Sequence record: NC_027381.1
DNA from: Escherichia phage Pollock
Length of the DNA: 64,000 bases
Direction: 5' to 3' (one strand)
Below are positions 6,318 to 60,637 of this stretch, in pieces. Each line of letters begins with the position of its first letter. Positions within the stretch are counted from its first letter, which is position 1. A program made the translations under genes and the position numbers. The notes under the pieces are model-generated. The model ran no database searches and was not told the DNA's origin. It was given only the letters and a program-made list of their open reading frames with translations.

Positions 6318-6650
6318 ATGAGTAAACCAAAAATTGAAATTGAAAAGATTGATGCTTTACGTAATGCATTTAATGCAATGTACGTATCTCATCAAGAAAT
6401 ATCTGTAGGTGATATTGTTATTCTACACCCTTCAGTTCCGGGAATTTTTAAAGTTCCTACTGAAGAACGTCCGGGTATCGTTACTAAATTTCTACCAAAA
6501 CCAATGTATGCGTATGAAATGGCTGACGATACACGTCCAAGCCATCCTTCTTCAGCAATACAATATGATTGTGTAATCAATATCATTAATGACGATGGTG
6601 AAATTGTTCCATTCTTAATGGATTCTCGTCGCCTCCTTAAAGTTAATTAA
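6318..6650 (+). CDS. hypothetical protein
   Basis: 110-aa ORF followed by terminator. Confidence 0.4.
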   Translation: MSKPKIEIEKIDALRNAFNAMYVSHQEISVGDIVILHPSVPGIFKVPTEERPGIVTKFLPKPMYAYEMADDTRPSHPSSAIQYDCVINIINDDGEIVPFLMDSRRLLKVN

Positions 6651-6655
6651 TCTAT

Positions 6656-6690
6656 AAGCCTACTTAGTAGTAGGCTTTCATTTTTCATCT
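6656..6690 (+). terminator. rho-independent terminator
   Basis: aagcctac-ttagta-gtaggctt hairpin followed by tcatttttcat. Confidence 0.55.
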
Positions 6691-6704: not shown

Positions 6705-6788
6705 ATGCGTCCTACAGCTATTAAAAAAGCTATTGAAAGAGCTTTTGCAGCAGGACTTGTTCCTTTTATTAAAGGTAGTCCGGGTATT
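6705..6788 (+). CDS. MoxR-like AAA+ ATPase, exon 1 (ends inside Walker A: ...FIKGSPGI)
   Basis: ATG 6705; reading frame stops immediately after GSPGI (TGA at 6789); the GKS that completes the P-loop is at 7179. Confidence 0.55.
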
Positions 6789-7178
6789 TGATTTTACAAG
6801 ATACCCTAAGCAGTGATGCTTAGTAAAAAATCCCTTGAATTGCTGGAAACCCTTAAAGCTGAATTAACTACTGCGAGTTGAAAAACAAAGCCAATGTTTA
6901 AAAATAATTCAGATATGTAGGCAATCAGCAGCCAAGCTCCTAAGGTTTAGGATATTAAGCTATGGAGAAGGTTCAACGACTAGGCGTAAGCCGTACACTC
7001 AAGTGAGTGGAAGTGGGGGACTCTTTACAAACTTACCACCATGGAATACCTTTTGTATTTGCAAAGAAAGGTCTATGTCGTAAATGTAGTAAAGATGAAG
7101 ATATAGTCTCGTCTTATGTGAAAGCATAAGCTGTTTAATAAACAGAGGGTAGCTTAACGAACTACCCTGAAGATTACG
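6789..7178 (+). ncRNA. group I intron 1 (ORF-less), interrupting the AAA ATPase Walker A
   Basis: ~390 nt between exon end (last nt T) and exon 2 (preceded by G); contains AACGACTAGGCG...CTCAAGTGAGTGGAAG core-like element shared with intron 2; exact boundaries approximate. Confidence 0.5.
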
Positions 7179-7421
7179 GGTAAATCTGCAATTATTCGTC
7201 AAATTGCAAAAGAAGCTAAATTATTGGTTATTGACCTTCGTTTAGGTCAATGTGACCCAACTGATTTATTGGGATTTCCAAATATTGAGAATGGACGGTC
7301 TGTATATCATCCACCAAAAGATATTCCAATTATTGGGGATGAAATTCCTAAAGGATATAACGGTTGGCTGTTATTCCTTGATGAAATGAATACAGCACCT
7401 AAAGCTGTTCAGGCTGCTGCT
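7179..7421 (+). CDS. MoxR-like AAA+ ATPase, exon 2 (GKSAIIRQIAKEAKLLVIDLRLGQ ... Walker B LLFLDEMN)
   Basis: no start codon or RBS of its own; in-frame stop at 7155 upstream; ends with stop directly after AVQAAA. Confidence 0.55.
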
Positions 7422-8265
7422 TAAATTAATAGGCATTTATGGGGGAAACCTCATATCTAAAGCTACTTAAAACGGGGAACTCTTAGTAGTGTATATACAC
7501 TAAAGACAATCCGTTGCTAAATAGGAATTAAGATGCAAGAAGTTTGGAAAGCTATTCCCGGATATGAGAAAGAATATGAAATTTCTACTCATGGACGGAT
7601 TAAGAGTTTAGATAGAGTCGTTCCTTGTAAACATGGCACTCGCCTTGTTAAAGGAAAATTATTAAAAACCTATATTAATCGAAAAGGGTATTTAATTGTT
7701 ACTTTATCTAAAGAAAATAAACTGAAAACATATACCGTACATCAGTTAGTTGCTCTTACATTTATTCCAAATTTCATTAAAGGCACAGAAATTAATCATA
7801 AAGACGGTAATAAATCCAATCCAGTATTAGATAATTTAGAAATTAGCAACCCTAGCCATAACCAGTTACATGCTATAGCTACAGGTCTTAAAGCAAAGGT
7901 TGGTAAGAGTAAATACCACAATGTAACTTACATTAAAAACCCACGGGCTAAGAAAAAGTGGGCTGCAAGTATAAGTTATAATGGGGAAAAATCTTTTGGA
8001 TGGAAAACATTTATGACAGAAGAAGAAGCTGCAAGATATGTAGATAAACTTCTTGATGAAATAGGTGATACTTCCCGTTTAAGAAATTTCTAATTAATTC
8101 CTTAAATGCCCAACGACTAGTCGAAAGACGTAGGCTCAAGTGAGTCGAAAAAGTAGCTCCCCAAACAAGTAAAGTTGTGGGGATTGATATAGTCTGCTCT
8201 ATATAGAAATATATAGCTGGATTAATTATCCGGGTAATGATTAACGACCATTACTGAACATAAGG
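7422..8265 (+). mobile_element. group I intron 2 carrying an HNH homing endonuclease ORF (td-like)
   Basis: 7462-7530 CTTAAAACGGGGAACTCTTAGTAG...AGACAATCCGTTGCTAAATAGG closely matches the phage T4 td intron core as recalled; ORF begins right after this element; 3' part has CAACGACTAGTCG...CTCAAGTGAGTCG. Confidence 0.65.
7533..8093 (+). CDS. HNH homing endonuclease (intron-encoded)
   Basis: 186 aa; N-terminal WKAIPGYEKEYEISTHGRIKS, HNH core NHKDGNKSNPVLDNLEISNPSHNQLH, C-terminal AP2-like DNA-binding region. Confidence 0.8.
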   Translation: MQEVWKAIPGYEKEYEISTHGRIKSLDRVVPCKHGTRLVKGKLLKTYINRKGYLIVTLSKENKLKTYTVHQLVALTFIPNFIKGTEINHKDGNKSNPVLDNLEISNPSHNQLHAIATGLKAKVGKSKYHNVTYIKNPRAKKKWAASISYNGEKSFGWKTFMTEEEAARYVDKLLDEIGDTSRLRNF

Positions 8266-8955
8266 TATAAACTGTTGGACCGTATGGTAGGACAAACCAA
8301 ATTACATCCTAGTGTTTATATTGCTGCTGCTGGTAACAAAGATACAGATGGAGCAATTACTACTACTATGAGTAGTGCAACTCTATCTCGTATTGTTAGT
8401 ATGGAACTAGAAGTTAACTTTAATGATTGGGCTGTATGGGCATTAGCCAATAACATTGACCATCGCATCATGGGATATCTTCAGTTCAAACCAGAAGCAT
8501 TCCATAAATTTGACCCTAAAAATCTTAAAGAACCTTTTCCATGCCCACGTACATGGGAGTTCATTAACCGTGCTATTAATGGATTAGATGTATCTTTAAA
8601 TTCTGATTTGGGTTTATTGTCTGGAATTATTGGTAATGGCACTGCTCGTGAATTTATTGAGTATTGTGCTATCTATGGTGAGATTGCTTCCTTTGAAGAA
8701 ATTATGTCTAATCCAGAAAGCATTGTCATCAAAGACAGACCAGACATTAAGTATGCATATGCTGGTTTTGTAGCTTCTCGCATTACCCCTGAAAATGCAT
8801 CTCAATTAATGAAATTCATTAATCGACTGCCCGTTGAATTTCAGATTGTAACTTTGAGTAATGCTTTTAAAGCTAAACCTCTCATTTCTCAAGTTCCAGA
8901 AATAATGGAATGGATTACTCGTTATGCCAACGAGTCAGGTGAAGGGATGCTCTAA
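8266..8955 (+). CDS. MoxR-like AAA+ ATPase, exon 3 (C-terminal part)
   Basis: AVQAAA | (YKL)LDRMVGQTKLHPSVYIAAAGN continues the AAA fold after Walker B; ORF track start 8275 is a TTG; 5' boundary approximate. Confidence 0.5.
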   Translation, partial: YKLLDRMVGQTKLHPSVYIAAAGNKDTDGAITTTMSSATLSRIVSMELEVNFNDWAVWALANNIDHRIMGYLQFKPEAFHKFDPKNLKEPFPCPRTWEFINRAINGLDVSLNSDLGLLSGIIGNGTAREFIEYCAIYGEIASFEEIMSNPESIVIKDRPDIKYAYAGFVASRITPENASQLMKFINRLPVEFQIVTLSNAFKAKPLISQVPEIMEWITRYANESGEGML

Positions 8956-10069
8956 TAAGGAGTTTCCTATGGATAAGAATAAAGCACTGGATTTAGCCAA
9001 AGTAGATTTATTTGCCCGTAAACAAAATACTTTTATTTGTTCCATCTTTTGCTCACTTCAGCTTAAGTGGGACGATACCATCCCTACAGCTTGTACTGAT
9101 GGTTTGAGTATCTTGATAAATCCAGATTATTTTATGGATTTACCACGTCCAATGCGAGTGACACTTCTTGCTCATGAGACGTGGCATGTTGCTTTAAAAC
9201 ATGTCTTAAGGGTTACGGGAAGAAATCCAAAATTATGGAATTATGCTTGTGATTATTACATCAATAATATGCTTGATGATGCTAAGTATGTTATTGGTAC
9301 TGGTTGGCTATTAGACCATCAGTATGATGGCATGAGTGCTCCAGAAATCTATAACAAGCTACAAAAATCCAGTAAAAACCTGCCTCAAAATTTATTAGGT
9401 ATGGATATTAAACCCTGTCCTTCTTCATCAGAAGAAGCTATTGAATCACAAATTGATTCTATGCTTATTCGTGGCTCTATTGCTGCAAAGCAAGGAGGAC
9501 AAGCTGGAAGTATCCCCGGAGATATCCAAGCATATATTGATGAGCTTCTGAATCCTAAATTACCTTGGAACGATATTCTCAGAAATTTTATTAATGAGAT
9601 GACTCGTAATGACTACACTTGGGCTAAACCTAATAAACGGTATTTGCCTGATATTTATTTACCTTCTCTAAATTCTGAAGGTCTAGAACATATCATTTTT
9701 TATACTGATATTTCTGGTTCAGTATCTGATACACAATTTGGTGTGTATATCAGTGAAATTCATGCAATTAAAACAACATTGAATCCAAAACGAATTACAG
9801 TATGTACGTTCGATACAAAGATTCATGAAGTGTATGAATTAGAAGAAGGAGATGATATTAGTAAGTGTACGTTTACAGGTAGAGGAGGTACATCTCTTAC
9901 TTGTGTGTATGAACATGCTAAGAAAGAGAAACCAGAACTCATCGTAATATTTTCTGATTTGGATTGTGCTCCAATGAAGGAACAACCTACACCTAATGTC
10001 ATTTGGGTATGTTTGGACAATCCAACAAAAACAGTTGATTTTGGTCAACTGATTCATGTGAAAAGTTAA
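8924..10069 (+). CDS. HExxH metallopeptidase-like / von Willebrand factor A domain protein (MoxR partner)
   Basis: 381 aa; LLAHETWHVALKH (HExxH); MIDAS-like IIFYTDISGSVSD (DxSxS); overlaps ATPase 3' end. Confidence 0.6.
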   Translation: MPTSQVKGCSNKEFPMDKNKALDLAKVDLFARKQNTFICSIFCSLQLKWDDTIPTACTDGLSILINPDYFMDLPRPMRVTLLAHETWHVALKHVLRVTGRNPKLWNYACDYYINNMLDDAKYVIGTGWLLDHQYDGMSAPEIYNKLQKSSKNLPQNLLGMDIKPCPSSSEEAIESQIDSMLIRGSIAAKQGGQAGSIPGDIQAYIDELLNPKLPWNDILRNFINEMTRNDYTWAKPNKRYLPDIYLPSLNSEGLEHIIFYTDISGSVSDTQFGVYISEIHAIKTTLNPKRITVCTFDTKIHEVYELEEGDDISKCTFTGRGGTSLTCVYEHAKKEKPELIVIFSDLDCAPMKEQPTPNVIWVCLDNPTKTVDFGQLIHVKS

Positions 10070-60307: not shown

Positions 60308-60384
60308 CGGAATGTAGCACAGCCGGGTAGTGCATCTGCTTTGGGAGCAGAGGGTCATAGGTTCAAATCCTATCATTCCGACCA
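60308..60384 (+). tRNA. tRNA-Pro (anticodon UGG)
   Basis: hand-folded cloverleaf: acceptor CGGAATG/CATTCCG, anticodon loop TTTGGGA, T-loop TTCAAAT, encoded CCA. Confidence 0.75.
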
Positions 60385-60389
60385 AATTA

Positions 60390-60467
60390 TTCCCGTTTAG
60401 CTTAATTGGTTAAAGCACCCGACTCATAATCGGATGATTACAGGTTCGAATCCTGTCACGGGAACCA
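60390..60467 (+). tRNA. tRNA-Met or Ile2 (anticodon CAU)
   Basis: hand-folded: anticodon loop CTCATAA, T-arm ACAGG-TTCGAAT-CCTGT, encoded CCA; exact 5' end ambiguous by 1 nt. Confidence 0.65.
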
Positions 60468-60471
60468 AAAT

Positions 60472-60547
60472 GCATCCTTAGCTCAATGGATAGAGCAGTA
60501 GCCTTCTAAGCTATTGGTTACAGGTTCGAATCCTGTAGGATGCACCA
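60472..60547 (+). tRNA. tRNA-Arg (anticodon UCU)
   Basis: hand-folded: acceptor GCATCCT/AGGATGC, anticodon loop CTTCTAA, T-loop TTCGAAT, encoded CCA. Confidence 0.75.
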
Positions 60548-60552
60548 TATTA

Positions 60553-60637
60553 GGGAGTATGGTGAAATTGGTAAACACAAGGGATTTAAAATCCCTCGCT
60601 TAATTGCTTACGAGTTCGAGTCTCGTTACTCCCACCA
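60553..60637 (+). tRNA. tRNA-Leu (anticodon UAA)
   Basis: hand-folded: acceptor GGGAGTA/TACTCCC, anticodon loop TTTAAAA, long variable arm, T-loop TTCGAGT, encoded CCA. Confidence 0.75.

Follow-up and report, generated by a model that had tools for sequence, protein, structure and literature searches.

The closest classical precedent for the element described here is the intron in the nrdB gene of phage T4, a group I intron lodged in a conserved enzyme gene of a phage, whose HNH endonuclease, I-TevIII, has been crippled by an internal deletion (note in the T4 GenBank record). Introns have also been indicated in other phages. HNH genes split the homologue of N4 gp24 in Vibrio phage JA-1 and 'may be carried on an intron', with no structure given (Fouts et al. 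2013, PMC3670811); Klebsiella phage Pylas (NC_049444) is annotated with an 'ATPase split by intron'; a polymerase-gene intron, labelled Intron_gpI in OQ848593, is present in the Pseudomonas N4-like phages YH6, LP14 and Pa_WF01; and a thymidylate-synthase intron has been reported in Vibrio phage pVa5. In the literature on introns of N4-like phages (Schitoviridae) we found no description of the element treated here, a 390-nt insert in the P-loop codons of an ATPase gene of Escherichia phage Pollock (NC_027381.1), hereafter intron 1; the same gene holds a second insert, intron 2, and the window is the whole stretch of 64,000 nt that was analysed. The favoured reading, to which we assign a probability of roughly 90%, is that intron 1 is a group I intron that still splices, was formerly mobile and had its HNH gene deleted from the loop of paired region P8.

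A first-pass annotation of the window had put forward a group I intron candidate of about 390 nt, free of open reading frames (ORFs), within the ATPase P-loop codons, and had named an Rfam scan and a fold from P1 to P9 as checks; both checks, and the placement, bear the proposal out. The insert measures exactly 390 nt and has stops in all three forward frames. The group I covariance model RF00028 matches it with 101.4 bits (gathering cut-off 50, E 4e-25), the full model (1-253) being aligned to 6778-7130, and its core junction sequences agree with the Rfam family consensus. The preceding exon ends in T (T6788) and the insert in G (G7178), as had been read from the sequence. Homology to intronless phages ends exactly at 6788 and restarts exactly at 7179 (megablast), and joining 6705-6788, 7179-7421 and 8266-8955 yields a 338-aa protein that is 85% identical, without gaps, to its uninterrupted counterpart in Salmonella phage FSL SP-076, annotated 'MoxR-like ATPase', and has Pfam matches to AAA_5 and AAA. 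The interrupted gene is assigned by homology as a MoxR-like AAA ATPase, the counterpart of N4 gp24. Across the junction the exons read ...GGT AGT CCG GGT ATT / GGT AAA TCT..., that is GSPGI/GKS, the Walker-A motif, with intron 1 between the codons for Ile28 and Gly29; the predicted ligated sequence of exons 1 and 2 is ...GGTATT followed by GGTAAATCT..., and the intronless P-loop site of FSL SP-076 is GGTAGTCCGGGTATTGGTAAGTCTGCAATC. The covariance model, the exon continuity, the U.G wobble of P1, the terminal G and the covariation described below together confirm the insert as a group I intron, as far as sequence can identify one.

The insert can be laid out consistently as P1 to P9.2, P7 and P9 included (Table 1). 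The 5' splice site follows U6788, which forms the wobble U6788.G6800 in P1, and positions 7096-7108 agree exactly with the Rfam consensus UgAAGAUAUAGUC. An unconstrained minimum free energy (MFE) fold of the whole intron (z = -3.2) recovers P1, P2, P4-P6, P7.1, P7.2, P8 and P9-P9.2, which is every helix outside the pseudoknot. The pair G6978-C7108 of P7 is the probable guanosine-binding site because of its homology to Tetrahymena G264-C311.

Relatives were gathered with a 22-nt core word and blastn, endonuclease ORFs were cut out, and 8 distinct family members were aligned with MAFFT; counting covered 52 pairs (405 cells) in helices that were in register, with controls in which the 3' partners were slid by 1-3 columns and with 500 shuffles. 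Standard pairs occupied 97.5% of the 405 cells as opposed to 36-47% in the slid controls, and changes on both sides were found in 26 of the 52 pairs as opposed to 2-7. No shuffle (0/500) equalled any of the observed covariation measures. The core helices P3-P9, with the P3/P7 pseudoknot, are supported as a set, and both-sided changes occur in 6/7 pairs of P9 and likewise in 6/7 of P9.2; P4 and P7 are invariant and therefore uninformative in this respect. P1 changes on the exon and guide sides together: at position -4 the U-A pair of the window is A-U in the related locus L016 (exon GGT to GGA, synonymous; guide A to U), and at position -3 its A-U pair is G-C in JA-1 (exon ATT to GTT; guide U to C). 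For P5a, P5b, P7.1, P8 and P9.1 the support comes from per-sequence folding instead of pair counts, because the MAFFT register was wrong there. When segments are folded separately, the architecture of P5a/P5b, P7.1/P7.2, P8 and P9-P9.2 is alike in every member with sequences that differ, and separate MFE folds of the P5 extension in 7 relatives give a single architecture.

Table 1. Coordinates in the window of the exons, the introns, the endonuclease sequences and the structural elements of intron 1
Feature	Position	Strand	Description
ATPase exon 1	6705..6788	+	28 codons, ends ...GSPGI; start and sequence match FSL SP-076 ATPase YP_008240168
Intron 1	6789..7178	+	predicted group I, IA2, T4 nrdB-like, without intact ORF; 390 nt; RF00028 match, excision restores ATPase
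ATPase exon 2	7179..7421	+	81 codons, GKSAII...VQAAA
Intron 2	7422..8265	+	predicted group I, 844 nt; after T7421, ends G8265; same site occupied in Pylas and JA-1
Intron-2 homing endonuclease	7533..8093	+	186 aa; Pfam NUMOD4 1.4e-16, HNH_3 1.5e-6; 61% identical to the Pylas intron homing endonuclease
ATPase exon 3	8266..8955	+	229 codons and stop
P1	6782-6789 / 6799-6806	+	exon GGGUAUU and U6789 pair with guide AGAUACCC; 7-8 bp; read from sequence, MFE fold
P10	6793-97 with 7180-84	+	UUUAC in P1 loop with exon-2 GUAAA; 5 bp
P2	6807-12 / 6817-22	+	UAAGCA/UGCUUA, GNRA loop GUGA 6813-6816; Rfam alignment, unconstrained MFE fold
P3	6831-37 / 7014-20	+	UCCCUUG/UGGGGGA, 7/7 pairs; family covariation
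P4	6841-46 / 6925-30	+	
P5	6851-54 / 6918-21	+	
P5a	6859-66 / 6905-12	+	MFE folds of 7 relatives
2-bp helix of P5 extension	6867-68 / 6896-97	+	A-rich 3' bulge within GUUUAAAAA, 6896-6904
P5b	6873-74, 6877-79 / 6884-86, 6890-91	+	GAAA cap 6880-83
P6	6931-33 / 6970-72	+	
P6a	6937-40 / 6964-67	+	four pair combinations across 8 relatives
P6b	6945-49 / 6956-60	+	
P7	6978-82 / 7104-08	+	GACUA/UAGUC; invariant in 8/8 relatives
P7.1	6983-92	+	GGC-GUAA-GCC; hairpin kept by compensatory changes across 8 relatives and in intron 2
P7.2	6996-7009	+	CACUC-AAGU-GAGUG; hairpin kept by compensatory changes across 8 relatives and in intron 2
P8	7022-28 / 7089-95	+	UCUUUAC/GUAAAGA; 60-nt loop holds deletion scar 7053/7054
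HNH endonuclease remnant	7055..7129	+	last 24 codons and stop, VFAKKGLCRKCSKDEDIVSSYVKA; overlaps P8', J8/7, P7' and P9 from 7089
J8/7	7096-7103	+	UGAAGAUA; then P7 3' strand UAGUC 7104-7108
P9	7113-19 / 7124-30	+	loop GAAA
P9.1	7131-35 / 7141-45	+	
P9.2	7146-52 / 7162-68	+	loop CUUAACGAA
Omega-G, terminal guanosine	7178	+	3' splice site 7178/7179

The first-pass annotation was correct that the intron has no intact ORF, but this state appears to be derived and the last 24 codons of an HNH gene remain in it. The relevant comparison is with a related metagenomic phage that has an intron at the same site (IMG/VR contig 3300045988_020372, loci L007 and L016). The L016 intron is 888 nt long and 92.6% identical to intron 1; its excess of 506 bp lies in the P8 loop and, with the flanks, encodes a 185-aa HNH_3 protein. 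In the window the corresponding junction reads ...GGAATACCTTT / TGTATTTGC... at 7053/7054, and the remnant downstream of it, VFAKKGLCRKCSKDEDIVSSYVKA followed by a stop, agrees with the L016 endonuclease C-terminus in every amino acid, the 3 nt differences all being synonymous. No intact homing endonuclease is encoded in intron 1 of the window. The only entry for the insert in the list of + strand ORFs of at least 40 aa, a 40-aa ORF with a GTG start at 7007-7129, is a chance fusion that spans the scar and takes its 3' part from the remnant. The first 34 nt of the remnant (7055-7088) belong to the P8 loop and serve no ribozyme function, and since they still encode, in frame, the C-terminal CxxC segment of the endonuclease, the ORF-less state is best read as the product of deletion and not as ancestral. 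Comparison thus shows it to be, in all likelihood, secondary, with a 506-bp internal deletion having taken the HNH homing endonuclease gene. The converse, an intron ancestrally without an ORF whose P8 loop was entered only later by the HNH gene of L016 and JA-1, would fit the general knowledge that free-standing endonuclease genes invade intron loops, and there is only one close endonuclease-bearing relative to set against it; it is improbable and already disfavoured, however, in view of that CxxC segment with its purely synonymous differences and of the distant same-site intron of JA-1, where an orthologous endonuclease occupies that loop too. Along its entire length the L016 protein shares 45% identity with the 191-aa HNH protein in the P8 loop of JA-1, and because the two are orthologous and share that loop, intron and endonuclease would have moved as a unit. 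A tblastn search of GenBank phages with the L016 endonuclease found nothing closer than three Vibrio phages at 45% identity, and with L016 as a proxy for the ancestor (...ACCTTT/AAAGG..., ...TTCTTC/TGTAT...) no microhomology was found at the deletion ends.

Each of the three relatives of intron 1 that carry an endonuclease has an HNH ORF that leaves the P8 loop and enters the catalytic core, ending in P9 in L016 (2410-2451), in the 3' strand of P7 in JA-1 (L003 3310-3336, ...Q D I V and stop) and in J8/7 in L008 (minus strand, ~6560-6600, ...K K I and stop). The conserved GAUAUAGUC is therefore both translated and structural.

The distribution of the two introns is patchy. The phage of the window has intron 1 with its endonuclease deleted and intron 2 with its endonuclease; L016 has intron 1 with an endonuclease and lacks intron 2; Pylas (L018) lacks intron 1 and has intron 2 with an endonuclease; FSL SP-076, FSL SP-058, KpCHEMY26, L011, L013 and L014 have neither; and the Vibrio phages JA-1, VCO139 and JSF3 have both, each with its endonuclease. 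All combinations occur among the relatives, the two introns being independent of each other, and the near-relatives that are intronless at the P-loop site are L001, L011-L014 and L017. The window and L016 are 92.6% identical in the intron but 68.9% in the ATPase coding sequence (nucleotide), and L013 and L014, from the same metagenome as L016, have ATPase coding sequences that are 96% identical and no intron. The ATPases of the Vibrio phages are 35-38% identical to the window protein, yet their introns occupy the same two sites. An intron conserved beyond its host gene, sporadically present and inserted at the same sites in distant hosts has what reads as the standard signature of homing. The sample from which L013, L014 and L016 derive (IMG/VR 3300045988) presents a natural polymorphism for the 888-nt endonuclease-bearing intron within one community.

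A scan with the 22-nt core word found 7 viral and 18 metagenome loci, and none of the 18 metagenome loci (0/18) encodes the ATPase. In the Pseudomonas phages Pa_WF01 (L002 2449-2714), YH6 and LP14 an ORF-less intron of this family splits an RNA polymerase subunit gene; a separate 222-aa ORF lies between that intron and the second polymerase fragment, and the intron is unannotated in most of the records.

The course of splicing can be proposed from the established group I pathway. The transcript would fold into P1-P9.2, and a free guanosine bound at P7 (G6978-C7108) would attack the phosphate after U6788, held in place by the guide at 6799-6806. The terminal G7178 would next occupy the guanosine site, P10 (6793-97 with 7180-84) would align exon 2, and ligation would remake ...GGT ATT/GGT AAA.... 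ATPase protein would be produced only once introns 1 and 2 had both been removed. Intron 1 would formerly have been mobile through an HNH homing endonuclease in its P8 loop, until a deletion of 506 bp took the gene; of the 24 surviving codons the 3' part would double as P8', J8/7, P7' and P9, and the tail of the gene would have survived because it overlaps the ribozyme core. Without its endonuclease intron 1 should be unable to home alone; in a cell co-infected by an L016-type phage it may be mobilised, either in trans or through recombination. Its persistence is probably due to continued splicing; by sitting in the endonuclease target it also destroys that target, and so should be immune to an L016-type endonuclease.

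Several points weigh against this account. Splicing of intron 1 is a prediction from sequence alone. P10 has only 5 bp with one exon base unpaired, where L016 and JA-1 have 6-bp equivalents, and P5 is weak, with 3 standard pairs and a U.U. The covariation set is small, 8 sequences selected for a common 22-nt core word, and the five helices in which MAFFT missed the register were left out of the pair count. The direction of the change, loss and not gain, is drawn from one close relative and JA-1. The first of these points would also suit a decayed intron that no longer splices and leaves the ATPase gene a pseudogene or one expressed as fragments, and endonuclease loss is a step that precedes intron loss in the homing-cycle model. 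Such decay is nonetheless very improbable, since the core junctions all match the Rfam consensus and the paired-region differences from L016 are compensatory (P6a CUCC/GGAG versus CUUC/GAAG, a P5b pair and the P1/guide pair), while the three exons are in frame, free of lesions and 85% identical to an intact homologue, and exon 1 alone would give a 28-aa peptide that ends in half a P-loop. An insertion of another type (intein, group II intron or non-coding spacer between separately translated ATPase fragments) has the bare fact of interruption in its favour and nothing more, and it can be dismissed as hardly credible: stop codons in all three frames of the insert rule out an intein, no other Rfam family matches it at the gathering threshold or at E <= 0.01, and the group I model matches in full.

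Set beside the systems named at the outset, the favoured reading of intron 1 as a spliced remnant of a mobile intron finds both likenesses and differences. The T4 nrdB intron has the same core layout (AAUUGCUGGAAA, AGCAGCCAAGG and GGUUCAACGACUAG, then P7.1 and P7.2), the same P9-P9.1-P9.2 order and a similar P9.2 loop (L9.2). Its ORF, however, lies in P6 with about half surviving, whereas the remnant in intron 1 lies in P8 and amounts to 24 codons; it lacks the P5a/P5b extension and the 11-nt P6 receptor, both of which intron 1 has; host gene and phage family differ; and direct similarity is limited to the core, at 76% over 51 nt (blastn). The introns of JA-1, VCO139 and JSF3 lie at exactly the two ATPase sites used in the window, GSPG(I/V)/GKS and VQAAA/YK. 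Intron 1 of JA-1 is 72% identical to that of the window over the core and shares with it the P5 extension, the 11-nt receptor and the L9.2 loop, but the Vibrio intron retains the 191-aa HNH gene that the window has lost. Pylas, of the close subfamily Humphriesvirinae, shares the host gene, and its intron, which lies at the intron-2 site, carries a NUMOD4/HNH endonuclease 61% identical to that of intron 2; the P-loop site of Pylas is without an intron, residues 1-109 being contiguous. The polymerase intron of the Pseudomonas N4-like phages belongs to the same family (71% over 185 nt), shares the P5 extension and is likewise without an ORF; it differs in its host gene, an RNA polymerase subunit gene, and in lacking the 11-nt P6 receptor.

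Intron 2 bears on the claim, made in the first-pass annotation, that an element in the 3' half of intron 1 closely parallels one in the downstream intron and that the two catalytic cores are related. The repeat is real: AACGACTAGGCGTAAGCCGTACACTCAAGTGAGTGGAAG lies at 6975-7013 and CAACGACTAGTCGAAAGACGTAGGCTCAAGTGAGTCGAAAAAG at 8111-8153, and a degenerate pattern spanning both matches at those two places only in the window, with a chance expectation of 0.00 matches (100 dinucleotide-preserving shuffles). The relationship holds at the level of one structural class, defined by a module of J6/7-P7-P7.1-P7.2, but the two introns are not each other's closest relatives. They can be aligned over one 39-nt stretch only (85% identical), and the same module is present in the T4 nrdB, JA-1 and Pylas introns, so that it marks a class and no special kinship. 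Intron 1 is nrdB-like and has its nearest relatives in the introns at the P-loop site of L016 and JA-1; the nearest relative of intron 2 is the Pylas intron, which shares its insertion site. Over 79 nt of its 3' part, intron 2 shows 80% identity to the T4 td intron; this similarity does not extend to the 5' part, for which a distant blastn search recovered no phages besides Pylas and two of Staphylococcus. By hand intron 2 can be laid out from P1 to P9.2 as intron 1 can. RF00028 matches it as two sub-threshold halves (33.5 and 28.9 bits) because its 186-aa ORF sits in P6a, between AGGAAUUA (7523-30) and UAAUUCCU (8095-8102).

In the scheme of Michel and Westhof, subgroup IA is defined by two hairpins, P7.1 and P7.2, that separate P7 from the P3 3' strand, and IA2 comprises introns of the T4 td/nrdB/sunY type. 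On account of P7.1/P7.2 and the core sequences, intron 1 is placed with the T4 nrdB type (IA2), an assignment made by hairpins and core likeness and not by a formal classifier.

Two further details concern the sequences of these introns. The Shine-Dalgarno sequence AGGA of the intron-2 endonuclease, 7 nt before its ATG at 7533, lies within the 5' strand of P6a, AGGAAUUA, whose partner UAAUUCCU follows the stop; ribozyme folding would therefore hide the ribosome-binding site, as has been reported for T4 introns. The 9-nt loop of P9.2 at 7153-7161 (UUAACGAAC or a near variant) occurs also in intron 2 (8235-8243), in both JA-1 introns, in the Pylas intron and in further members of the family (loci L003, L008, L009 and L018 being among those with the loop), the T4 nrdB counterpart being UUAGCGAGC. 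A complement to this conserved loop was sought, and no convincing partner was found.

The P5 extension of intron 1, with its A-rich 3' bulge and GAAA-capped P5b, and the 11-nt GAAA-receptor motif in P6a/P6b, CCUAAG (6939-44) / UAUGG (6961-65), recall the Tetrahymena P5abc and its clamp between the P5b loop (L5b) and J6a/6b. The analogy is structural: the Tetrahymena intron is of subgroup IC1 and intron 1 of IA2, intron 1 lacks the P5c three-way junction, and the contact is suggested here by the motifs. The receptor is also found in JA-1 intron 1 and in L008, and L016 has a compensated variant, UCUAAG/UAUGA; L009, L002, L020 and L029 have the P5 extension without the 11-nt receptor, and L022-L025, L028 and L035-L037, which form another subfamily, have the receptor motif within a longer P5 extension. 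No description of an L5b-P6a/b clamp in T4-type phage introns was found. A tentative extension of the favoured reading, which we think would fail sooner than hold, is that intron 1 is kept as a 'vaccinated' allele, immune to the co-circulating L016-type HNH endonuclease and free of the cost of a nuclease, and, separately, that an IA2 subfamily has its P4-P6 stabilised by a Tetrahymena-like L5b-P6a/b clamp. If true, the 'vaccinated' allele would be a case of intron-mediated competition between phages.

Intron 1 is a clear yet ordinary case of mobile intron decay and leaves existing knowledge of group I introns unchanged. Its value lies in the detail with which the decay can be followed. The phage of the window, L016 and the intronless relatives represent three stages of the homing cycle at one site (without endonuclease, with endonuclease and empty), and the deletion scar can be read to the single base, providing a base-resolved example of endonuclease loss. 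The nucleotides that encode the P-loop appear conserved enough to serve as a homing site common to Vibrio and enterobacterial phages. For annotation the consequence is practical, in that gene callers would report the ATPase, which looks essential, as three fragments and a stray HNH gene, as several relatives are annotated, and the intron map gives the correct 338-aa product.

The source of the window is, by its sequence, an N4-like podophage. A 24-kb stretch that encodes the virion RNA polymerase, DNA polymerase and further N4-type genes is ~84% identical to the Salmonella phages FSL SP-058 and FSL SP-076 (Schitoviridae, Humphriesvirinae). The IMG/VR contig UViG_2706796286_000001 is 100% identical to the window, and the GenBank phage collection had nothing closer than ~86% identity. 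The ATPase start at 6705 is separated from the gene before it by a terminator-like hairpin (6656-6677), a 9-bp stem followed by a T-run. The next gene downstream of the ATPase (8924-10069, likely start ATG 8970) encodes a DUF2201 metallopeptidase domain (Pfam 7.6e-43) and a VWA-like domain (7.3e-25); RefSeq calls its orthologues in FSL SP-076 and Pylas 'HNH endonuclease', in what looks like an annotation error. An Rfam scan of the whole window (E <= 0.01) found no introns other than the two in the ATPase gene, its further matches being four tRNAs and two sub-threshold hits to Plastid-ycf2 at two of the tRNA genes, on the other strand. The tRNAs form a cluster at 60308-60637: Pro-TGG, Met-CAT, Arg-TCT and Leu-TAA.

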